Part shown: positions 1 to 8,099 of the stretch, piece after piece
How positions within the stretch are numbered: the stretch's first letter is position 1
Layout: the number at the start of each line of letters is the position of its first letter
Assembly: GCA_964463155.1 (NCBI GenBank)
Contig: CAYXAY010000032.1
Span: 1 to 8,099 of the forward strand
From: an uncultured archaeon
GTDB lineage: Archaea; Iainarchaeota; Iainarchaeia; Iainarchaeales; CSSED10-239
Direction of reading: 5' to 3'
Length of the DNA stretch: 8,099 nucleotides
Position numbers and translations under genes: made by a program
Notes under the pieces: generated by a model
Seen by the model: the letters and a program-made list of their open reading frames with translations, nothing else
Told to the model about the DNA's origin: nothing
Database searches by the model: none

Positions 1-1215
1 CAAAAACTATATGAAAAAGGATATATCTATGAATCCGTTTATGAGGGATTATATTGTGTAGGTTGTGAAGGATACTTCACACAAAAAGATTTAGTAGATG
101 GCAAATGTCCAATACATCAAAAAGAACCAATTGCAATTAAAGAAAAAGGATATTTCTTCAAATTATCTAATTTTAAAGAAAAACTAATAGAAGTATATGA
201 TAAAAACCCAGAACTAATTGTTCCAAAAGGAAAAAATACAGAAATATTAAATAGATTAAAAAATGAAGAACTAAAAGACTTATATATTAGTAGAAAAAAC
301 TTCAAATGGGGAATTCCTTTACCTTGGGATAAAGAATATGTATTATGGGTGTGGTCAGATGCTTTATTCAATTACTTATCAGCCCTTGAAAACACAGATT
401 CAGAGAAATTTAAAAAATATTGGCCTGCAGATGTTCATCTAATAGGTAAAGACATATTGTGGTTTCACACAGTTATTTGGCACTCTTATTTATTAGCTTT
501 AGAGTTACCACTACCTAAACAAGTATTTGCACACGGTTGGTGGACAATCTCTGGACAAAAGATGTCAAAGACTTTAGGTAATGTAGTTTATCCAGGGGAT
601 ATAGTAAAAAAGTATAGTAAAGATATTTTCAGATACATACTAATGAAAGAAATTGGCTTTGGAAGCGATGGGGACTTCTCAGAAGATAGAGTTATACAAT
701 ATCAGAACTCTGATTTAGCAGACAATTTAGGGAACTTAGTAAACAGAACACTTGTAATGACAAAGAAATACTTTGATGGAGTTGTTCCTAAACCTGCAGA
801 ACTAGAAGAAGTAGATAAAGAACTAATTGAAAAAGCAAATAATGTTATTAATATCTATAATCAAAATATGGATGATTTTAAATTTAATGTTGTATTAACA
901 GACATTTGGGCACTTCTAGATAATGCTAATGCTTATATTAATAAAACAGAGCCCTGGAATCTTGCAAAATCTGGAAAAATCGAAAGAGTACAAACAATTA
1001 TATATAATTTAAATGAAATAATTAGAATTGCAGGAATATTAATGTTTCCATTTATACCAGAAACTGCAGAAAAAATAGAATCAATCTATAATAAAAAGAT
1101 AAATTCTTTTGATGATGCAAAATGGGGGTTATTAGTTCCTGGATTTAAATTACAAAAAGACAATTTAATTTTATTTAATAAATTGAAAACAGATGAAATT
1201 ATAAAGAAAGAATAA
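1..1215 (+). CDS. metG: Methionyl-tRNA synthetase (class I), 5'-truncated by the window edge; no C-terminal Trbp111-like tRNA-binding extension
   Basis: Frame 1 is open from nt 1 with no stop before TAA 1213-1215, so the track's GTG start at 349 is internal. Zinc-knuckle region YCVGCEGYF...GKCPIH. Typical core HLIGKDILWFHTVIWHSYLLA...VFAHGWW. KMSKS loop present as KMSKT (nt 559-573). Anticodon-binding helical region DNLGNLVNR... Confidence 0.95.
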   Translation, partial: QKLYEKGYIYESVYEGLYCVGCEGYFTQKDLVDGKCPIHQKEPIAIKEKGYFFKLSNFKEKLIEVYDKNPELIVPKGKNTEILNRLKNEELKDLYISRKNFKWGIPLPWDKEYVLWVWSDALFNYLSALENTDSEKFKKYWPADVHLIGKDILWFHTVIWHSYLLALELPLPKQVFAHGWWTISGQKMSKTLGNVVYPGDIVKKYSKDIFRYILMKEIGFGSDGDFSEDRVIQYQNSDLADNLGNLVNRTLVMTKKYFDGVVPKPAELEEVDKELIEKANNVINIYNQNMDDFKFNVVLTDIWALLDNANAYINKTEPWNLAKSGKIERVQTIIYNLNEIIRIAGILMFPFIPETAEKIESIYNKKINSFDDAKWGLLVPGFKLQKDNLILFNKLKTDEIIKKE

Positions 1216-1217
1216 TT

Positions 1218-2153
1218 ATGAAATATACTAAAGACCTACTATGGACTAAAGGAATGGCTGTTTCTGAGCTTGTTGATGGATTTTCTTCTATTGGTTTTCA
1301 ATCAGCAGAGGTGTCAAGGGCAGCAACATTAATTGAGAAGATGAAAAAAGAAGGAGCAAAGGTTTACTTGTCTTTTACTTCTAATATGGTTACTTCGGGT
1401 CTTCGCGGTTTTTTTGCACAAATATTGAAACTAAAGATTGCTAGTGTTGTTTGTACAACTGTTGGGGCTGTTGAAGAGGATATAATGAAGGCAAATGGCG
1501 AAAAGTTTATCTTAGCATCCTTTAAGGTAGACGACCAAGAGCTTTATGAGAAAGGAGAAAACAGAGTCGGTAACATCTTAATTACAAACGAAAGCTACTT
1601 AAAATTTGAAGGTAGTATGCAGGGCAATCTCCTTGAGCTTTACAAGCAAAAGAAAGTTTGGTCTACTTGTGAACTTTTAAGAGAGATTGGGCTTAAGTTA
1701 AATGACGAAAACTCTTTCTTGTACCAAGCAGCAAAAAACAATATACCAGTATTTTGCCCAGCAATAACAGACGGTTCTTTTGGCTTCCACTTATATCTTT
1801 TCCAGCAAGACCATAAGGATTTTATGGTTGACATAATCTCTGACTTTAAACAAATAATCTTTTCAACAACACATGACGAGAAGAAAGGAATTATTGCGCT
1901 TGGTGGTGGCATTGCTAAGCACCACGTCATCTTAACAACACTAATCAACGGAGGAGCAGACTATGCCCTTTACATGACAACTGCTGGTTCTCGCTCAGGA
2001 AGCCTTTCCGGAGCAACAACAGACGAAGCAAAATCCTGGGGTAAGATTAAAGACGAAGCAGATGCTGTAACAGTTATTGGAGATGTTACAATCACATTCC
2101 CACTTGCAATGATAAAAGCACTTGAAGACCTAACAAAAGAAGGAATTATATGA
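1218..2153 (+). CDS. dys: Deoxyhypusine synthase
   Basis: 311 aa. Family-typical stretches: FTSNMVTSGLRG, VVCTTVGAVEEDIMK, NIPVFCPAITDGSFG and the NAD-site GGGIAKHH. TDEAKSWGKIK contains the catalytic lysine of the SWGK motif (AAG 2043-2045). Starts 2 nt after the metG stop. Confidence 0.95.
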   Translation: MKYTKDLLWTKGMAVSELVDGFSSIGFQSAEVSRAATLIEKMKKEGAKVYLSFTSNMVTSGLRGFFAQILKLKIASVVCTTVGAVEEDIMKANGEKFILASFKVDDQELYEKGENRVGNILITNESYLKFEGSMQGNLLELYKQKKVWSTCELLREIGLKLNDENSFLYQAAKNNIPVFCPAITDGSFGFHLYLFQQDHKDFMVDIISDFKQIIFSTTHDEKKGIIALGGGIAKHHVILTTLINGGADYALYMTTAGSRSGSLSGATTDEAKSWGKIKDEADAVTVIGDVTITFPLAMIKALEDLTKEGII

Positions 2154-2482
2154 GTGAAAAAACAACAAATCCAGAAACAAAAGAATACAATAAAAAATTA
2201 ATATTGGCATTTTTCTTAGTGGTGATAATTATCTTTACTGGAATTTTTATATTAAGTAAAATTGAAAACTGGACCAATGTAGATTCTGTTTATTTTACAA
2301 TTATGACTTTAACAATAATTGGTTTTGTGGGCATTGTTCTAAAAACTGTTGCCGACAAATTAATAATGTCTGTTTATGCACTTATTGGTGTCGCCACCTT
2401 TTTATTCTGTATTGGAATAATTGCTGAGCATTATTTCTTTAGAAGATTTAAAAATATAATACAAATATTGATAATAAAGTAA
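2150..2482 (+). CDS. Minimal two-TM pore-loop (K+ channel-like, Ion_trans_2-type) membrane protein with degenerate selectivity filter
   Basis: 110 aa. TM1 is LILAFFLVVIIIFTGIFILS. The pore-helix/filter-like segment DSVYFTIMTLTIIGFVG (filter nt 2306-2332) compares with the canonical YFsvvTlTTVGYGD. TM2 is MSVYALIGVATFLFCIGIIAEHYF. The ATG overlaps the dys stop (ATGA 2150-2153). Confidence 0.6.
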   Translation: MSEKTTNPETKEYNKKLILAFFLVVIIIFTGIFILSKIENWTNVDSVYFTIMTLTIIGFVGIVLKTVADKLIMSVYALIGVATFLFCIGIIAEHYFFRRFKNIIQILIIK

Positions 2483-2583
2483 AAAAAAGTAAGTGTAGGT
2501 CTAAAGACAATGGATAGAAAAATCAAATTTATTGAAAGAATGAAACTTGCAAAGAAAAAACAAAAAGAAGAAACTGATTAAAA

Positions 2584-3120
2584 ATGAAAGACCATTATGA
2601 AATTGAAGTTAAAGTTTTAGAGATTAACAAAAAAGAACTAGAAAGGAAACTAAAAGAAATAGGTGCAAAGAGGCTTTTCTCTTATAGAAAAATTATACAA
2701 GAAAACTATGAGAACTCTGAACTAAAAAAGAAAAGTGCAGCAATAAGAGTAAGACAACTCGGCAAAGAGGTTTTTATAACATTTAAGCAATTTAAAGAAA
2801 TAAAAAATAATATTAAATGTTGTAGAGAAATAGAGTTTCAAGCAGTTTCTGATTTTAAAACGATTCAAAATATTTTCACTTTTCTTGGCCTAAAAAGATA
2901 TCACAGGATAGAAAAAACAAGAACAACCTATATTCTTGGAACAACAACCTTTGACATAGACAGCATATCAAAACCATTCAAGATTCCTTGCTATTATGAG
3001 ATAGAGACAAAAACCTATAAAGACATAGATAAGATATTAAAGCAATTAGATGTTCCAAAAGAAAAGGTCTTGCCATGGGGAACAAAGCAACTTTTAGCTT
3101 ATTATAAAAAACTAATTTAA
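2584..3120 (+). CDS. CYTH-domain protein (CyaB-like class IV adenylate cyclase / triphosphate tunnel metalloenzyme family)
   Basis: 178 aa. N-terminal ExExK signature YEIEVK (nt 2599-2613). The remaining CYTH beta-strand motifs follow in order: AIRVRQ, ITFK, REIEFQ, IEKTRTTY, FDID, YYEIE. Confidence 0.85.
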   Translation: MKDHYEIEVKVLEINKKELERKLKEIGAKRLFSYRKIIQENYENSELKKKSAAIRVRQLGKEVFITFKQFKEIKNNIKCCREIEFQAVSDFKTIQNIFTFLGLKRYHRIEKTRTTYILGTTTFDIDSISKPFKIPCYYEIETKTYKDIDKILKQLDVPKEKVLPWGTKQLLAYYKKLI

Positions 3121-3594
3121 AAGAACAATCCAAAGATACAGGATTGTTGCAAAACATAACCAAACAAGATATGGTATCAAAAGATATGCTGCTTTCTCAT
3201 TTAGTTGATAGAACTTGATTATGGTTATTGAAACAAAACCAACAAGAACAAATATACAAATTAAACCAAAGACTGGTGATTCTAAGCCAAAGAACAGAAA
3301 TGACCAAGCAATATTGAGTATTAATTGTAAGCTAAAGAAAAGCATCGCTGATTTTTTTATTTCTGGATCTCTTCTGTATTTTTGTGGTTGTGACCAGACA
3401 ATGTAAAGTGCTAGACCCATCAAGATATAAAGAGTTGTCCAAACAATTGGAAAAACAAAATTTGGTGGAGTAATTGGTGGCTTGATTAGTGTCTCATACC
3501 AAGAACCAGGCCCGGTTTCTGTAACTAAAGAGCCAATAAATCCTGCCCCCAGGCATATTAAAATCGACACAGGAAATTTCCAATAATCTTTCAT
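3112..3594 (-). CDS. tspO: TspO/MBR family tryptophan-rich sensory protein (5-TM)
   Basis: 160 aa. Hallmark N-terminal region GAGFIGSLVT...GSWYETLIKPPITPPNFVFPIVWTTLYILMGLALYIVW, then NIAWSFLFFG. About five hydrophobic helices. The 3' end overlaps the CYTH gene 3' end by 9 nt (3112-3120). Confidence 0.9.
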   Translation of the reverse strand: MKDYWKFPVSILICLGAGFIGSLVTETGPGSWYETLIKPPITPPNFVFPIVWTTLYILMGLALYIVWSQPQKYRRDPEIKKSAMLFFSLQLILNIAWSFLFFGLESPVFGLICIFVLVGFVSITIIKFYQLNEKAAYLLIPYLVWLCFATILYLWIVLLN

Positions 3595-3637
3595 AAAATA
3601 TCACTCATAAATATATCTATTCTTGCAACAAAAGCAA

Positions 3638-3647
3638 TTTAAATATA
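3638..3647 (+). promoter_or_regulatory. TATA-box candidate for the small Cys-tail membrane protein gene
   Basis: TTTAAATATA lies in the divergent tspO/3710 intergenic region. The predicted TSS near 3670 leaves a roughly 40-nt leader carrying GAGGAG (3695-3700) before GTG 3710. Confidence 0.3.
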
Positions 3648-3709
3648 TGGAGTATATATATTATACAAAGAAATTTACAATTATAAAAATAATAAGAGGA
3701 GAAAAAAAT

Positions 3710-3937
3710 GTGGATAAAGAAAAAAATGAAAACCCAACAGTTGCTTTAGCAGGAACTATTTGTGCTTTTGCAGTAGGTATTGCAGCTTTAATTGTAATCT
3801 TTGCAAAAAATTATGCTTGGATAATTATATTTACAACATTAACTTTGTGTTTCTTTGGAATAGCACTAGCAAAGAAAGATTGTTCTTGTGGTCCAAATTG
3901 TGAATGTAATACAAAACCAAAAGATAAAAAAAAATGA
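3710..3937 (+). CDS. Small 2-TM membrane protein with Cys-rich C-terminal tail (CSCGPNCEC); start uncertain
   Basis: The ORF is open from 3623 (TTG), with an in-frame ATG at 3647. A GTG at 3710 sits 9 nt after the only strong SD-like element in the window (GAGGAG, 3695-3700) and downstream of a TATA box at 3638-3645. Two hydrophobic helices (TVALAGTICAFAVGIAALIVIFA and WIIIFTTLTLCFFGIALA) are followed by KKDCSCGPNCECNTKPKDKKK. Confidence 0.5.
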   Translation: MDKEKNENPTVALAGTICAFAVGIAALIVIFAKNYAWIIIFTTLTLCFFGIALAKKDCSCGPNCECNTKPKDKKK

Positions 3938-3947
3938 TGCTTAAATT

Positions 3948-4346
3948 ATGCCAACATTAAGACCAGCAAGAAGATTATCTTCTAAAGTCCTTGAAGATAT
4001 GAAAAAAAAGAGAATAGAGAAATCAAAGCCAAAAGTGCCTATTGATTATCAAACAAAAATATTAAGAGTTGATGCTGAAATTAAAGCTCTTAAGATTATT
4101 TCAGAATACGATTCTAAATTAATGAAAGGATTTACAGTTAACACTTTAGAGCAGATGAAAATAAATATTTCTGATTTACTAAAAAAAATAACAGAAGAAA
4201 TAGAGATATTAAAGAAAGCAAAATTAGAAAGAAGCAATCTTGCTGGCTTGAATATAGAGATAACTAATTTTGAAAGACAAAAGAAAGAATCAGAAAAGAT
4301 TATTGCTATTCTTGAATCTAAAATTAAAGAAAAAACAAGACAATAA
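3948..4346 (+). CDS. Hypothetical coiled-coil protein (basic N-terminus, Lys/Glu-rich helices)
   Basis: 132-aa ORF, 10 nt after the preceding stop. Heptad-like K/E/I/L-rich sequence. No motif I can recognise. An oligo-T tract (TTCTTTTTATT) follows the stop. Confidence 0.55.
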   Translation: MPTLRPARRLSSKVLEDMKKKRIEKSKPKVPIDYQTKILRVDAEIKALKIISEYDSKLMKGFTVNTLEQMKINISDLLKKITEEIEILKKAKLERSNLAGLNIEITNFERQKKESEKIIAILESKIKEKTRQ

Positions 4347-4365
4347 TTCTTTTTATTCTAAAAAC

Positions 4366-4375
4366 ATATATAAAT
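4366..4375 (+). promoter_or_regulatory. TATA-box candidate for the 4397 gene (leaderless geometry)
   Basis: ATATATAAAT is centred about 27 nt upstream of ATG 4397. No SD-like sequence lies in between. Confidence 0.35.
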
Positions 4376-4396
4376 CTTATTCTCTTTATATTTAAT

Positions 4397-4825
4397 ATGA
4401 ATAAAGGGTCTAAAATTTTTGTAATTGTATTATTAGCAATAATACTTATCTCTATTGTTTATATATTTAATAATAAAATTAATGATCTAGAAGACAAATA
4501 TAATATTCTAAATAATAAATATATAAAACTAAATCAAGAACATGAGCAACTTATTGAAGAAAAGCAAGAATTAGAAGATCAATTTAATAATCTTACAGCT
4601 GATTTTAAAGACTTAACAGAAAATTACAATTCTAAGGTCTTAGAAAACAAAGAAAAAGATCAAGAAATTAATTCTTTAACAAACAACTATAATAATGTTT
4701 TAGAAAACTATCAAACTCTTAATAACGAAGTAGGAATATTTAAAACAAGAATAGAAGAATCTATGGATTGGTTTAAGAATAATTCTACTCTTGATAATCT
4801 TTCAAATCAAAGAATTATAAAATAA
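4397..4825 (+). CDS. N-terminal portion of a TM-anchored coiled-coil protein; apparently continues in another frame (see 4821-5519)
   Basis: 142-aa ORF. Signal-anchor helix IFVIVLLAIILISIVYIF, then about 100 aa of N/E/K/L-rich coiled coil with an internal LTxNYNxxVLEN duplication. A TATA-like ATATATAAAT (4366-4375) lies about 27 nt upstream of the ATG, which suggests a leaderless mRNA. The ORF ends at TAA 4823-4825, immediately where frame 0 opens. Confidence 0.6.
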   Translation: MNKGSKIFVIVLLAIILISIVYIFNNKINDLEDKYNILNNKYIKLNQEHEQLIEEKQELEDQFNNLTADFKDLTENYNSKVLENKEKDQEINSLTNNYNNVLENYQTLNNEVGIFKTRIEESMDWFKNNSTLDNLSNQRIIK

Positions 4826-5519
4826 TCTTAAAAAATGTGTAACTTGTGAAGATGATTTATGTTATATAAAAACAGCATGTATTTATGTTATTAATCAAGA
4901 AGAACTAAATCTAAAATCTGCATTAGATTCTCAAACTTCAGGACAAGAAGACAAATTACAAACACTTGAGCAATTTCTTTTACAAAAAAAAGGAGACTGT
5001 GAGGATTTTTCTTTGTTTTTTGCTGCAGAGTTAAGATATTTGATTGAGTATGTTAGTTCTCAAGAAAAAACACCAATCATTGAAGCAATTGTAGAATCAG
5101 ATACTTCCAGAAGTTATGAAATTGTTGGCAGATGGTATTACCCTGAAGGTATAGAAAAAAAAATAATTTCTAAAGAATATAGTTATCCTTATGTTGCTGG
5201 TGGTAATATTTTTGATCCTAATACTCAAGAGATTGGAGGACATTGTTTGATAATGCTTTCAGAAGAAGAAATAAATGAAAGTCAAGATATTGAAGACTTA
5301 GACGACATAGAATTACTAGAACCACAAAACGGATTATATATTGGAAAAGCTAAAAACAATGGAATATTTGAAACAAAAAATTCAGAAAATCAAGTTGGGC
5401 AAATAATCACAAGTGCTGATTATTATATGCACAATTCCATTCTTTATAGCAATAATACAGAAAGTCATTGGTATAGTTCTGGTTATTATTACAATAAGAT
5501 TATAGAATTAGAACAATAA
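4821..5519 (+). CDS. C-terminal portion: transglutaminase-like / BTLCP-like cysteine peptidase core, lacking its own start codon (frameshifted gene or pseudogene)
   Basis: Frame 0 is open from 4821 and reads NNLKKCVTCEDDLCYIKTACIYVINQEELNLKSALDSQTSGQEDKLQTLEQFLLQKKGDCEDFSLFFAAELRYL... The first possible start in this frame is TTG 5013, which falls after the catalytic-Cys-type motif GDCEDFS (Cys codon 4998-5000). The candidate His is in GGHCLIML (5241-5243) and the candidate acid in LLEPQN (5319-5321). Confidence 0.55.
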   Translation, partial: NNLKKCVTCEDDLCYIKTACIYVINQEELNLKSALDSQTSGQEDKLQTLEQFLLQKKGDCEDFSLFFAAELRYLIEYVSSQEKTPIIEAIVESDTSRSYEIVGRWYYPEGIEKKIISKEYSYPYVAGGNIFDPNTQEIGGHCLIMLSEEEINESQDIEDLDDIELLEPQNGLYIGKAKNNGIFETKNSENQVGQIITSADYYMHNSILYSNNTESHWYSSGYYYNKIIELEQ

Positions 5520-5561
5520 ATTAATTATTTTATAATAACTCCCTTTTTGTGTTTTAATTGA

Positions 5562-5601
5562 TTTTCGGGTAAATAATTATCGCGATTAGAATCACCGAAA
5601 A
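5562..5601. terminator. Inverted repeat TTTTCGG / CCGAAAA (7-bp stem, 26-nt loop containing the palindrome ATCGCGAT) between convergent genes; possible bidirectional terminator or protein-binding site
   Basis: Stem arms are 5562-5568 and 5595-5601, and the loop palindrome is 5579-5586. An oligo-T tract CCCTTTTTGTGTTTT (5541-5555) lies just upstream on the + strand, the usual archaeal termination signal. Confidence 0.25.
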
Positions 5602-5641
5602 ATATTGTTTATGGAGATTTAAATCACAATACGTTTTCTTA

Positions 5642-6316
5642 CTATTTTAATTTCTTTTCTAATTGATCATAGTATTCTAAGCTTAGCTTTCTTATGTCTT
5701 TTAGTATTGGAATAACAATTTTTCTATCCTCTAAAAGATTTAATCTTTCTTCAAACCAAGTTATCCAAACATCTTTTCCTGATTTTTTCACTTGATATTT
5801 GATTTCATCTAAGATAACATTCCAGTTAGGGTTTGTTCTAGCAATTGATTGACAATCGCCAATATCTCCATCTCTGTCTGTGATGCTTTTGAAAACTAAG
5901 ATGTCTTCTAAGGAACAAGCAAATAGTTTTATGTTTTTATATTCTTTTATTAGTTTAGCTCTTTTAATCATGTTATCGCTAAGAAACAGATTATTACATA
6001 CAATTTTATTAAAAATATCAAATCTGTAGTTGTCTTTGATTAGTATATTTTCTAAATTTAGTTTGTGGTATTCTCTTGTTGGTTTTTCAAGTGTGAAATC
6101 ATTTTTCTTGAGTGTATTGATCAATGATTCATATTCTTCTTTAGAATTAACAATCAAGTCTATGTCTTTTGTTCCTGGTTTAAGGTTGTGATAAAGAAGT
6201 ACTGCTCCGCCTATCAGGTAGACATTTATCTTATTTCTAATATTTTTGTTAATTTCATCGAATGCTTCAGATATTTGAGTAAAATCAGTTATATATTTTT
6301 CCATTTTATTAATCAC
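5642..6316 (-). CDS. Pol-beta-superfamily nucleotidyltransferase, minimal (about 220 aa); putative toxin/effector of an AbiE-like pair
   Basis: The signature LIGGAVLLYHNLKPGTKDIDLIV (nt 6158-6211) fits G[GS]-x(9-13)-DxD. The probable third acidic residue is in YRFDIF. The C-terminal helical part with VFKSITDRDGDIGDCQSI resembles the K..R.kD..D motif of archaeal DUF2204/DUF6036-type NTases (from memory). The start is GTG 6316 overlapping the upstream TGA (GTGA), or ATG 6304, 8 nt after it. Confidence 0.7.
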   Translation of the reverse strand: MINKMEKYITDFTQISEAFDEINKNIRNKINVYLIGGAVLLYHNLKPGTKDIDLIVNSKEEYESLINTLKKNDFTLEKPTREYHKLNLENILIKDNYRFDIFNKIVCNNLFLSDNMIKRAKLIKEYKNIKLFACSLEDILVFKSITDRDGDIGDCQSIARTNPNWNVILDEIKYQVKKSGKDVWITWFEERLNLLEDRKIVIPILKDIRKLSLEYYDQLEKKLK

Positions 6317-7257
6317 ATCTTTATATCATATACTTTTGCTTTTTCTTTTATTTCTTTTAGTGGAGGATATCTTTCTATTTTTTCTCCAGAAAAGATTCTA
6401 TTTAGATTATCTAGTATTTCGTGTTTAATATCTTTAAATTCATTTTTATATTTATAGTAATAGAAAGCAAGATACATTCTATCTCTAAATTCTTTTGTTT
6501 TTTCTACAATTGCTAAGGTGTGTAGTAGTATATCTTGCTTAGTTAGTTGTTTCTTTGGTAGGTAATAGAAGTTTTCAAGAGTATAGATAAGTAGGTTATA
6601 GTCTTTAAACGCAGAAAAGGAAGTTAATGTTGCATCTATATTTTGTTTTATTGAAAACACTATTTCTTTTTCGTTTTTGTAGTAAATTGTTGAACCAACA
6701 GGCACTCTATAATCATAGTTATCTTGAAAACTTTTATATTCTTTTAAAAAATCAATTAAATCTGGCCAAACACTATAATTAACTATATATTCTTTATTTT
6801 CTTTAATAAATATAGATCTTCCTTGTGCTTTTTTTATAAATTGTTTTATAGTTATTTCTTTTAGTCCTGTTTCTTTTACGATTTCTGTTATTGTTTTTTT
6901 ATCAAGGGCAGTAGTTAGTATTTTTATTCCAGAGTTAGGTAATATTTCGATTAGATTTTTATTTACAAGTAGTTTTCTTAATTTCAAAGCAAAAGGATAT
7001 TCTGAGACAGAAAGTTTTTGTTTATCTTTAGTTATTAGTTTTTCTCTTATAAGTACACCAATCATTTCACTTATATGTGTTTTATTCATTTTAATATTTT
7101 CAAGTATTTTACTTAATCTGTTATTTCCTTGACAGATTTCATAAAACACAAGTAATTGAGTTCTCGTAAACATAAGTATATTTATATCCGAACTACATAT
7201 AAATGATTCGGTTTTCAGCACATTTTTAGTAGTGCATTCTAATATATTTAAAAGCAA
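6313..7257 (-). CDS. Tandem winged-helix (MarR/TrmB-like) DNA-binding protein with about 150-aa C-terminal domain of unknown family; putative regulator/antitoxin partner of the NTase
   Basis: wHTH-like segment 1 is FTRTQLLVFYEICQGNNRLSKILENIKMNKTHISEMIGVLIREKLI. Segment 2 is KKTITEIVKETGLKEITIKQFIKKAQGRSIFI. The track start is TTG 7257. ATG 7173 (MFTRTQLL...) is more plausible because a minus-strand TATA-like TTTAAATAT (about 7242-7250) lies inside the TTG extension. The gene is translationally coupled to the NTase gene. Confidence 0.7.
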   Translation of the reverse strand: MLLNILECTTKNVLKTESFICSSDINILMFTRTQLLVFYEICQGNNRLSKILENIKMNKTHISEMIGVLIREKLITKDKQKLSVSEYPFALKLRKLLVNKNLIEILPNSGIKILTTALDKKTITEIVKETGLKEITIKQFIKKAQGRSIFIKENKEYIVNYSVWPDLIDFLKEYKSFQDNYDYRVPVGSTIYYKNEKEIVFSIKQNIDATLTSFSAFKDYNLLIYTLENFYYLPKKQLTKQDILLHTLAIVEKTKEFRDRMYLAFYYYKYKNEFKDIKHEILDNLNRIFSGEKIERYPPLKEIKEKAKVYDIKM

Positions 7258-7328
7258 GTTTTTGAAATTTTGTAAAATTGAGAAAACATAACTTTTTTTA
7301 ACACAATTACAAAAAATCTAGACGGCAG

Positions 7329-7338
7329 ATTTAAATAG
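7329..7338. promoter_or_regulatory. Palindromic archaeal TATA-box candidate (ATTTAAAT core) in the divergent intergenic region between the HTH-NTase operon and hicBA
   Basis: GATTTAAATAGG matches the TTTAWATA consensus. The ATTTAAAT core reads the same on both strands. It sits 56 nt upstream of hicB ATG 7393 and 72 nt upstream of the minus-strand TTG 7257. Confidence 0.35.
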
Positions 7339-7348
7339 GTGGAGATAC

Positions 7349-7377
7349 ATGATTTACATATATTTTTAATGATTTAC
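7349..7377 (+). repeat. Direct repeat ATGATTTAC x2 (7349-7357 and 7369-7377), 20-nt periodicity, between the TATA box and the hicB start; possible operator
   Basis: The exact 9-mer is seen twice, two helical turns apart. In such an AT-rich spacer this is not statistically compelling alone. Confidence 0.25.
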
Positions 7378-7392
7378 TAGTTTAATAACTAT

Positions 7393-7623
7393 ATGAAAGG
7401 AAAGAGAAAGAAAATGGAAACTACATATAATATAATTATTGAGAAAGACAAAGCTGGTTGGTATATTGCAGAAGTTTTAGAATTACCTGGCTGTTATTCT
7501 CAAGCAAAAAGCATGGATGAATTAGTTAAGAGAACAAGAGAAGCAATTAAATGTCATTTACTTGAATCTAAGATAGAGGTTCCTGTTTCTAATTTTATCG
7601 GAATACAACAATTAAGGGTGTAA
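7393..7623 (+). CDS. hicB: HicB-family antitoxin (UPF0150 / partial RNase H-like fold), N-terminal domain only with no RHH/HTH DNA-binding extension
   Basis: YNIIIEKDKAGWYIAEVLELPGCYSQAKSMDELVKRTREAIKCHL matches the classic pattern y.v.ie.d.dG.y.a.vp.lpGc.sqG.t.eEa..n..eAi. The alternative start ATG 7414 (METTYN...) gives a more family-typical 69 aa. Confidence 0.9.
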   Translation: MKGKRKKMETTYNIIIEKDKAGWYIAEVLELPGCYSQAKSMDELVKRTREAIKCHLLESKIEVPVSNFIGIQQLRV

Positions 7624-7629
7624 ATCCTT

Positions 7630-7863
7630 TTGAAAGAATTACCTTTGTTAACTGGAAAAGAATTAGGAAAGGTAATAGTTAAACTAGGTTATAAGTATGA
7701 CCACACTTCTGGAAGCCATATGACCTTTATTAATTTAAAAGAAAACAAGAAGATAACGATTCCAAACCACGGTTCTGAATCAATAAGGCCTGGGCTTCTT
7801 CTAAAGATAATAAAGAAAGACCTAGGAATAACAAAAGAAGAATTCCTAGAACTATTAAAATAG
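7630..7863 (+). CDS. hicA: HicA-family mRNA interferase toxin (YcfA-like)
   Basis: TGKELGKVIVKLGYKYDHTSGSHMTFIN...KITIPNHGSESIRPGLLLKIIKKDLGITKEEFLELL has the GSH catalytic-His motif and the IP.H...i..g.l..Ilk..gi tail. TTG start 6 nt after the hicB stop. Confidence 0.9.
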   Translation: MKELPLLTGKELGKVIVKLGYKYDHTSGSHMTFINLKENKKITIPNHGSESIRPGLLLKIIKKDLGITKEEFLELLK

Positions 7864-7899
7864 TTACTTATTTAAAGAGTTTTAACTAATCTAATTAAT

Positions 7900-8085
7900 A
7901 TGAAACATCCAAATAAGGAAATAATGCTACAAGTTCTAAAGCTTTCAAAAGAGAACAAGAATACCTGTGCCGCATTTATTGTTAAGGATAATAAAATTAT
8001 TTCTAAGGATATTTGTCATTATAGTGAATACAAAAAAGGGCAATTTATTAAATCCTCGGCAGTATACTGCACATTTATGTGCTGA
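7900..8085 (+). CDS. Short ORF resembling the N-terminus of a CMP/dCMP deaminase; apparently truncated or degenerate
   Basis: KEIMLQVLKLSKENKNTCAAFIVKDNKIIS resembles the dCMP-deaminase N-terminus (..A.l.a.RStC....VGAvIVKd.rIis). No HAE or PCxxC zinc motifs follow. The ORF ends in tandem stops, TGATGA (8083-8088), at 61 aa. Confidence 0.3.
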   Translation: MKHPNKEIMLQVLKLSKENKNTCAAFIVKDNKIISKDICHYSEYKKGQFIKSSAVYCTFMC

Positions 8086-8099
8086 TGAATGCCGAATAA

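Follow-up and report, generated by a model that had tools for sequence, protein, structure and literature searches.

A two-gene module of a winged-helix protein and a DUF6036 nucleotidyltransferase in archaea, a candidate toxin-antitoxin or addiction family

The locus and its two genes

The window analyzed here is a stretch of 8,099 nucleotides (nt) from an uncultured archaeon of the Iainarchaeota (GenBank assembly GCA_964463155.1, contig CAYXAY010000032.1, positions 1 to 8,099), which is AT-rich, with a G+C content of about 28%, and archaeal. Positions 5642-7257 are filled by two co-directional open reading frames (ORFs) of the minus strand, lying where an earlier note made from the letters of this DNA had placed them (Table 1). 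The upstream ORF encodes a protein with two winged helix-turn-helix (wHTH) units and a C-terminal domain, referred to below as the partner, and the downstream ORF encodes a nucleotidyltransferase (NTase) of the Pol-beta superfamily. The pair is considered here as a candidate toxin-antitoxin (TA) or addiction module related in its layout to AbiE and MenAT.

Regarding the partner, whose ORF ends ...VYDIKM-TGA, a length of 286-314 residues had been proposed. The shorter form holds because homologues align from ATG 7173 and the promoter lies between this codon and TTG 7257; the form of 314 residues, initiated at TTG 7257, is very unlikely, as both the family alignment and the promoter geometry favor ATG 7173. 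For the NTase, the earlier note had read a GTGA overlap, in which the partner stop (TGA 6313-6315) meets a GTG start at 6316, giving a protein of 224 residues. Both codons are present in the sequence, but the GTG is disfavored by the N-termini of the family and is probably not the start used. ATG 6304 is favored instead because the database gene call (P0001) has 220 residues and the N-termini of homologues, which are 215-223 residues long, align to MEKY.... The tight coupling of the two genes holds with either start.

Table 1. Positions of the module, its domains and motifs, and the adjacent hicBA genes in the window
Feature	Position	Strand or orientation	Basis or remark
Palindromic operator-like site CCGAA-N14-TTCGG	7188..7211	(-)	Flanks TATA box tttatat 7203-7197
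Partner gene, 286 residues + TGA stop	6313..7173	(-)	ORF, homologue alignment, AlphaFold2
Partner wHTH domain 1, residues 1-58	7000..7173	(-)	Model H4-14, H20-27, H31-43, E47-50, E53-56
Partner wHTH domain 2, residues ~80-132	6778..6936	(-)	Model H82-88, H95-102, H106-118, E122-125, E128-131
Partner C-terminal domain, residues 135-286	6316..6771	(-)	24 invariant columns; weakly HVO_2833_C-related
Gene junction: TGA 6315-6313 + 8-nt spacer, then NTase ATG 6304	6305..6315	(-)	Sequence
NTase gene, 220 residues + TAG stop, putative toxin	5642..6304	(-)	Pfam DUF6036, homologues, AlphaFold2
NTase catalytic motifs I + II: G32-G33, x13, T45-K46-D47-I48-D49	6158..6211	(-)	Alignment
NTase D96, third carboxylate ('RFDIF')	6017..6019	(-)	At least 90% of family
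NTase K139-x4-R144-D-G-D147-x-x-D150	5855..5890	(-)	Possible condensed counterpart of DUF1814 motifs III/IV
hicB	7393-7623	Divergent, upstream of pair	HicB_lk_antitox E = 3e-8
hicA	7630-7863	Divergent, upstream of pair	HicA_toxin E = 9e-13

The nucleotidyltransferase and its partner protein

The NTase scores above the Pfam cut-off for DUF6036 (PF19502; 28.5 bits vs. 23.6) and, more weakly and marginally, for DUF2204 (PF09970; 21.3 bits vs. 20.3), and no match to AbiEii/DUF1814 (PF08843) was obtained in Pfam at E ≤ 1. The suggestion that it stands closer to DUF2204/DUF6036 than to DUF1814 is thus borne out, and by sequence it is not a member of DUF1814/AbiEii. Most of the 53 NTase homologues collected carry a precomputed PF19502 match, and relatives are named 'DUF6036 family nucleotidyltransferase' in RefSeq. 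The Pol-beta signature noticed at the outset ('LIGGAVLLYHNLKPGTKDIDLIV' and 'RFDIF', both found in the NTase) is a property of the family, with G32, G33, D47, and D49 invariant and D96 present in at least 90% of members. In an alignment of 30 sequences, the invariant residues of the first region are I31, G32, G33, K42, T45, K46, D47, I48, and D49, to which K139, T142, R144, G146, D147, D150, and C151 are added further downstream. The active site is also intact in the haloarchaeal and fused forms described below.

AbiEii proteins are defined by hG[G/S]x9-15DhD (motifs I and II), KLxAaxxR (motif III), and +DxxD (motif IV) (PMC3985639). Motifs I and II of the window NTase fit hG[GS]x9-15DhD, here with x13 and with T-x preceding the first Asp, and the stretch K139-x4-R144-D-G-D147-x-x-D150 is a shortened look-alike of motifs III and IV of DUF1814. 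Using hhalign, K139-D150 is placed on the K...R...RDxxD of archaeal AbiEii and T45-x-D47 on its S-E-D-L-D, in an alignment that is not significant (E = 0.35). In MenT1, MenT3, and AbiEii, antitoxin binding leads to auto-phosphorylation of the Thr or Ser that precedes the first catalytic Asp by two residues (PMC11375011; bioRxiv 10.64898/2026.01.19.700257), the phospho-acceptor and Asp being T39/D41 in MenT1 (PMC11375011), S78/D80 in MenT3, and T65/D67/D69 in AbiEii (bioRxiv 10.64898/2026.01.19.700257; PMC3985639). The spacing of the invariant T45-x-D47 equals this arrangement.

The AlphaFold2 model of the 220-residue protein (predicted local distance difference test, pLDDT, 91.7) adopts the expected NTase fold. 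A Foldseek search of the PDB returned 16 matches at E ≤ 0.001, namely to MenT1 (including the MenAT1 complex), TM1012, Pb27 (5UVD), ANT(2'')-Ia, LnuA, and JHP933 (4OK0). The best is MenT1 (8AN5, 8AN4, 8RR5), with E = 1.2e-5 to 2e-4 and a query-normalized TM-score (TMq) of up to 0.57; for chain 8an5_A, E = 7.5e-5, TMq is 0.57 and the target-normalized TM-score 0.63. MenT1, Pb27, ANT(2'')-Ia, and JHP933 have been grouped in a 'DUF1814 superfamily', a list in which TM1012 and LnuA are not included (bioRxiv 10.64898/2026.01.19.700257). No PDB chain was detectable by sequence or profile search with the NTase. Taken from the model and the conserved residues, a MenT-like fold and catalytic competence are well supported. 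The model also matches the AbiEi antitoxin 6Y8Q_A (Foldseek rank 20, probability 0.99, TMq 0.41, 183 columns), a resemblance between an NTase fold and an antitoxin that was unexpected.

The partner is represented by 54 homologues, mostly of 287-290 residues. Its AlphaFold2 model (pLDDT 93.6) consists of two wHTH units followed by the domain of residues 135-286, in which a helix, a β-hairpin, a helix, a strand, and a helical bundle succeed one another. Two winged helices and a C-terminal domain of about 150 residues had been anticipated, and both the model and the tandem winged-helix matches agree with this: with the full-length protein, Foldseek returned only winged-helix proteins from the PDB and the viral library, the top match being the tandem winged helices WH2-WH4 of SelB. 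In Pfam, the first wHTH of the window partner matches HTH_45 and HTH_27 weakly, TrmB matches can be found in 23 of 28 family members, and a second HTH match appears in homologues at residues ~88-143. The family is strongly basic (median isoelectric point, pI, 9.5; net charge about +17). When 1.84 billion representative proteins were searched exhaustively with the partner profile, 579 clusters at 50% identity were obtained (E ≤ 1e-3), nearly all of them of about 280-300 residues and with the full architecture.

Conservation within the partner is highest in the C-terminal domain, whose 24 invariant columns include D154, R156, P158, Y203-Y204-L205-P206, G263, Y269-P270, and E274. HVO_2833_C (PF24271) is matched by 26 of the 28 members, always below threshold (best E = 9.5e-5), and the window partner reaches only 15 bits against a cut-off of 34. 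As these matches are weak and below the Pfam cut-off, the domain is probably a distant relative of HVO_2833_C rather than a member. No PDB match was obtained by sequence profile, and a profile search of a word-indexed protein database returned same-family fragments and no distant relatives. Two other identities, a degenerate NTase and an AbiEi-like domain, were considered and rejected, as hhalign relates the domain neither to the NTase family nor to AbiEi. For the window partner, no AbiEi match was found in Pfam (E ≤ 1) or with PADLOC, and AbiEi lies outside the 25 commonest families across the 28 partners; neither HEPN nor HepT was matched in Pfam scans of the window protein and of the 28 members.

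Coupling, operator and mobility of the pair

The NTase was searched for in one genome per GTDB species. Relatives are present in 142 of the 185,579 species genomes, and 80 loci were retrieved. Most of the species concerned belong to DPANN lineages (Woesearchaeota, Nanoarchaeota, Pacearchaeota, Diapherotrites, Aenigmatarchaeota, and Iainarchaeum); further ones come from Methanosarcinales (among them a Methanosarcina contig of 182 kb), Methanofastidiosum, Thermoplasmatota, and Methanobacteriota. Of the 80 loci, 76 encode the partner directly upstream in the same orientation, which amounts to all 76 testable ones, since in the four loci without a visible partner the NTase sits at a contig end. 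Starting from the other side, with the C-terminal domain of the partner, the NTase was found directly downstream in 77 of 78 testable metagenome loci. At the sole exception, L158, the NTase has been lost and the partner faces a canonical AbiEii/AbiEi pair. The co-localization of the two genes in other genomes, which the earlier note had proposed as a check, is thus the rule (10 of 10 inspected plasmid loci can be added, see below), and the pairing is far beyond chance.

Orphan partners were seen at two loci, L158 and L084, and an NTase without a partner at none. In L158 (134-2262), the partner is followed by a remnant ORF of 43 residues and then by the convergent canonical AbiEii/AbiEi pair; in L084, on the Halapricum plasmid pHSR-Est01, a partner without NTase is followed by transposases.

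Across 72 related loci, the spacing between the partner and NTase genes ranges from -17 to +10 nt, with an overlap in 42 of them. The classes are -17 (26 loci), -4 (12 loci), -1, -8, or -11 (4 loci together), and +1 to +10 (30 loci); at a spacing of -17, the ATG of the NTase lies inside the conserved ...YDIK tail of the partner. Obligate, translationally coupled co-expression is well supported. In addition, partner and NTase can be found as a single polypeptide of about 550 residues in P0274, P0278, L061, and a Halovenus plasmid, and these fusions show that the two work together physically. The fused proteins (L061:3014-4657, P0274, P0278, and L083:2119-3780) have 547-563 residues arranged as wHTH-wHTH-HVO_2833_C, the DUF6036 NTase, and a further winged helix at the C-terminus; L061 has, immediately downstream of its fused gene, an unfused pair as well.

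The module extends to plasmids. By tblastn, NTases about 33% identical to that of the window over 94% of their length are encoded on 95 archaeal plasmid records, mostly haloarchaeal megaplasmids together with Methanohalobium pMETEV01. All ten loci inspected (nine haloarchaeal, one Methanohalobium) harbor the pair or a fusion: a separate upstream regulator gene overlaps the NTase gene by 4 nt in seven haloarchaeal loci and by 1 nt in L089, the two are adjacent with a 2-nt gap in L082 from Methanohalobium, and they are fused in L083 from Halovenus. The upstream gene encodes about 308 residues in six loci, 242 in L082, and about 180 in L085, and is labeled 'MarR family regulator' or 'hypothetical protein' in RefSeq. 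When the partner profile was run on three of the plasmid regulators, it recognized those of Natrinema L081 (E = 1.5e-19), Methanohalobium L082 (1.7e-19), and the fused Halovenus L083 (2.3e-25). The RefSeq pairs of a 'MarR family transcriptional regulator' and a 'DUF6036 family nucleotidyltransferase' in haloarchaea and Methanohalobium are the same system as the window pair, with the difference that the NTases on plasmids are longer (267-280 residues vs. 220 in the window), ending in an additional winged helix, and that some copies form one polypeptide of about 550 residues; their annotation is generic only. No study of these plasmid pairs was found in a literature search.

Among the neighbors at the plasmid loci are orc1/cdc6 (2 of 10), VapC, helicases, and an IS66 transposase. 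Whether the pair takes part in replicating or partitioning plasmids was considered and set aside, orc1/cdc6 being adjacent in only these two loci. A hypothetical gene of about 107 codons lies divergently upstream of the pair in four loci on haloarchaeal plasmids (L081:1589-1912, L083:1621-1938, L088:2089-2412, and L089:2088-2411), two of which are also beside orc1/cdc6; the two copies translated, those of L081 and L083, are closely similar (MSYEPP...ITIKEINDNRYYYWQWREGD...).

A shared promoter architecture can be found in front of the partner gene. Upstream regions of 65 loci were anchored at the partner ATG, and 61 sequences on the TATA box. In 45 of the 65 loci, the box begins at -30, and in 64 it begins between -28 and -32, a position that would make the transcripts leaderless; in the window, the box (7203-7197) is about 27 nt upstream of ATG 7173. 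A two-tier palindrome surrounds the box, with the consensus ATTCCAC-aaaa-ATGCGAA-aaa-TTTATATA-tta-TTCGCAT-tttaa-TGGAAT-t-ATG. Its best symmetry center is -26.5 in 34 of the 65 loci and lies within 1 nt of this in 43. For the 61 TATA-anchored sequences, 808 complementary cells were observed around the center at -26.5 vs. 677 expected from column composition, and at eight shifted centers the excess was only -34 to +41. Covariation is seen at offsets 9-12 and 19-23 because several Watson-Crick pair types occur there.

In the window, the inner tier is formed by CCGAA (7211-7207) and TTCGG (7192-7188), with its center 26.5 nt upstream of the ATG; CCGAA-N14-TTCGG is unique in the window and was contained in none of 200 shuffles. 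L091 and L092, relatives with 94% identity to the window, keep the palindrome. At haloarchaeal plasmid loci, the two-tier layout over the TATA box recurs with different sequences, as in Natrinema (TGTAACA...CGAAACTT-ct-TTATATAc-AAGTTTCG...TGTTACA), and at the fused Halovenus gene, the arms on either side of the TATA box are perfect over 19 bp. Covariation of this palindrome is shared by the loci of DPANN archaea, methanogens, and haloarchaea, and the site points to autorepression by the partner and to a promoter of the autoregulation type. A dimer of the two-winged-helix protein could read the four half-sites, which would fit these data, and the site would be analogous to the inverted-repeat operator of AbiEi (PMC3985639).

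The surroundings of the pair vary. The 362 ORFs on its flanks form 290 clusters, none of which represents a conserved neighbor, and among the 150 genes within two positions, the most recurrent are AbiEii, HepT, Polbeta/MNT, ParE, and further DUF6036 paralogues. PADLOC detects canonical archaeal AbiE pairs beside homologues of the module; such AbiEi/AbiEii pairs lie within three genes of it in four genomes (L023, L030, L051, and L078), and MNT/HepT, ParE-like, Fic, and AAA_14/DUF4143 genes recur near it. Such neighborhoods have the appearance of hotspots rich in TA genes, in DPANN as well as euryarchaeal genomes. The enrichment of homologues in defense islands envisaged at the outset is modest only. 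Two copies of the pair occur in one metagenome-assembled genome (L001 and L002), and L076 has a tandem duplicate.

A second NTase resembling DUF6036/DUF2204 is located right beside the main pair in L014 (3742-5033), L029 (1993-3335), and L073 (6666-7939). Its hhalign probability against the NTase family is 99.7%, and its own partner is a different winged-helix protein of about 210 residues with no Pfam match. These paralogous pairs suggest a wider set of winged-helix and DUF6036 modules.

The position beside hicBA, which the earlier note had listed, is real but incidental, because relatives 94% identical to the window are without hicBA. Their homology is lost at 7243, just upstream of the operator, and in L092 the sequence beyond this point carries, as identified by eye, a hydrolase-like ORF with HExxH and a P-loop ATPase-like ORF; the junction at ~7243 looks like an insertion or rearrangement boundary. 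A viral origin of the NTase was also considered and is unsupported, zero relatives being found in IMG/VR. That the module is horizontally mobile is well supported, and it is read here as a self-contained operon.

Elsewhere, the window encodes deoxyhypusine synthase, the C-terminal part of MetRS, TspO, and a CYTH protein, and contains zero tRNA genes and zero Rfam matches. Three of its ORFs (3948-4346, 4397-4825, and 5013-5519) have no family assignment: two are Lys/Glu-rich and coiled-coil-like, one with an N-terminal hydrophobic segment, and the third has 168 residues and no Pfam match. These ORFs (3948-5519) are syntenic with the module in close relatives, in which homology reaches window position 3688.

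Known systems and possible functions

AbiE (AbiEi/AbiEii; COG5340-DUF1814) is a type IV, now proposed type VII, TA and abortive-infection system, and few prokaryotic defense and TA modules are as common as those with NTase toxins of the AbiE/MenAT type. To our knowledge, experiments have been limited to bacterial DUF1814 members, with the exception of one archaeal DUF1814 system (PygAT). In the approximately 8 million papers and preprints searched, DUF6036 and HVO_2833 are not mentioned, and the single match to DUF2204 is an unrelated paper.

The window module resembles AbiE in several respects. It is bicistronic, with a winged-helix regulator first and an NTase of the Pol-beta superfamily second; it shares the hG[GS]x(n)DhD motifs and the Thr two residues before the first Asp; its promoter carries inverted repeats; and it is found on plasmids and in variable chromosomal contexts. 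However, PADLOC makes no defense-system assignment for the two proteins, and the pair is not a canonical AbiE because the AbiE models of Pfam and PADLOC, which do catch canonical archaeal AbiE next door, match neither of them. The NTase belongs to DUF6036, is shorter (220 residues), and has a condensed look-alike of motifs III/IV; the partner combines two winged helices with an HVO_2833_C-like domain, whereas AbiEi has one winged helix and the AbiEi C-terminal domain; and the operator is a two-tier palindrome centered on an archaeal TATA box. The first reading of this DNA, as an uncharacterized and non-canonical NTase module of AbiE-like architecture, is upheld. The architecture, a regulator with an NTase toxin, is of a known kind; what is new is the NTase family, the architecture of the partner, including its C-terminal domain, and the operator with its palindrome over the TATA box.

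With regard to MenAT1 and MenAT3 from Mycobacterium tuberculosis (8AN4, 8AN5, 8RR5), MenT1 is the closest structure and is similar in size, and the T-x-D loop with downstream Lys and Asp parallels T39, D41, K137, and D152 of MenT1 (PMC11375011). Nevertheless, sequence identity between MenT1 and the window NTase is only 13-15%, and MenA1 is small and without transcriptional autoregulation, unlike the window partner, a putative DNA-binding protein of 286 residues.

The reading favored here, with moderate confidence, is that the pair, which is widespread among archaea, represents a new family of AbiE/MenAT-like TA or addiction systems, for which we infer the toxicity, the target, and the mechanism of neutralization. 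An autoregulation-type promoter, obligate coupling, an intact MenT-like NTase, mobility, and the asymmetry of the orphans together fit such a module, in which the partner is predicted to be an autorepressor and an NTase-controlling subunit, hence a putative antitoxin. Its dimer would place four winged helices on the four half-sites (outer and inner, on each side) and, when on the operator, would occlude the binding of TBP/TFB and repress the operon. Its C-terminal domain would bind the NTase and prevent its activity, either by sequestering it, by inducing Thr45 of the T-x-D-x-D loop to be auto-phosphorylated, or by both, a mode of silencing modeled on the action of MenA1, MenA3, and AbiEi upon MenT1, MenT3, and AbiEii. 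Were the partner depleted or displaced, as upon plasmid loss, virus infection, or stress, the freed NTase would add nucleotides to an essential RNA, most plausibly to tRNA 3' ends, and this modification would stop growth and give rise to addiction or abortive-infection behavior. Both Thr45 auto-phosphorylation and the tRNA target are extrapolated from MenT/AbiEii and may or may not carry over. The more specific version, that of an undescribed pan-archaeal, type VII-like TA or addiction family spread over DPANN archaea, methanogens, and haloarchaeal megaplasmids, in which the partner represses its own leaderless promoter and, by way of its HVO_2833_C-like domain, silences the NTase through auto-phosphorylation of Thr45, is put forward only tentatively.

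Several observations weigh against the TA or addiction reading. Fused partner-NTase proteins are atypical of classic TA pairs, although they are compatible with a TA system, HEPN-MNT being a precedent in which the pairs fuse too (PMC3632139). The equivalence of T45 with the MenT phospho-acceptor is based on motif spacing and not on a residue-level structural superposition. The profile-profile comparison of the NTase with archaeal AbiEii is not significant (hhalign, E = 0.35), and that of the partner with archaeal AbiEi aligns the winged-helix segment only (probability 11%). The NTase is near neutral overall, with a family median pI of 6.2, and the same fold can be found in the small-molecule NTases ANT(2'')-Ia and LnuA, with scores about equal to those of some MenT1 chains. 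Finally, TA and defense genes are a minority of the neighbors, many flanking genes being housekeeping ones, and no NTase relative is present on the IMG/VR viral contigs.

Some of these points would also suit a non-toxic operon, in which the substrate nucleotidylated by the NTase is a small molecule, such as a metabolite, a cofactor, or a compound resembling an antibiotic, and the partner is a ligand-sensing autorepressor whose C-terminal domain binds the inducer. ANT(2'')-Ia and LnuA rank high in the structural search (E 3e-4 to 8e-4, TMq 0.45-0.49) and resemble the window NTase in overall fold and size; an autoregulated layout with the repressor first is common in operons for resistance and catabolism; the NTase as a whole is not basic; and the alpha/beta C-terminal domain of the partner could bind a ligand. 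However, ANT(2'')-Ia and LnuA are stand-alone resistance enzymes with no obligate coupled DNA-binding partner, whereas strict 1:1 coupling, the stop/start overlap, and repeated fusion point to a physical complex here. The occurrence of partner-only loci and never of NTase-only ones, the multiple and tandem copies, plasmid carriage, the company of TA modules, and the fact that the closest structure is a toxin also speak against an operon of this type, which is regarded as unlikely.

It can also be hypothesized that the pair forms a two-subunit NTase acting on nucleic acids, the partner serving not to inhibit the enzyme but to target it to DNA or RNA, for instance when plasmids or chromosomes are maintained or RNA is repaired or tagged. 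The strongly basic charge of the partner, not shared by the NTase, would agree with this, as would the RNA-binding tandem winged helices of SelB among its best matches, the single-polypeptide fusions, the location beside orc1/cdc6 on two haloarchaeal plasmids, and the high conservation of both proteins among distant archaea. Yet the orc1/cdc6 adjacency concerns only 2 of 10 plasmid loci, a patchy distribution (142 of 185,579) and variable neighborhoods argue against a core function, and the palindrome over the TATA box of the pair itself already explains DNA binding as autoregulation. A targeting role of the partner is accordingly considered quite improbable.

The comparison with HEPN-MNT (HepT/MntA) bears on the polarity of the system. 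HEPN-MNT is likewise a two-gene, NTase-containing TA system that is abundant in archaea and sometimes fused (PMC3632139), and it often occupies the same neighborhoods; there, however, the NTase is the antitoxin and the HEPN RNase the toxin, no HEPN (Rx4-6H) domain was found in the window partner, and the window NTase is MenT-like rather than of the minimal MNT type. A reversed polarity, with the NTase as antitoxin modifying (e.g., AMPylating) and silencing a toxic partner, could invoke the precedent of NTase antitoxins in MNT-HepT, fused forms included (PMC3632139), and the MNT/HepT pairs near several module homologues, but it is highly improbable given a partner made of winged helices and an alpha/beta domain without HEPN or nuclease-like signature, partner-only loci that a toxin would not tolerate, and an NTase fold of the MenT/AbiEii type.

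If the pair does work as a TA or addiction system, haloarchaeal megaplasmids would have in it a candidate module for their maintenance, and small DPANN genomes a mobile stress or defense element; it would also test whether antitoxin-induced auto-phosphorylation extends beyond DUF1814. If the reading of Thr45 were true, the regulatory mechanism of MenT/AbiEii would be extended to a distinct NTase family and to Archaea. The operator itself would be a clean case for archaeal repression through occlusion of the TATA box by a predicted four-winged-helix dimer.

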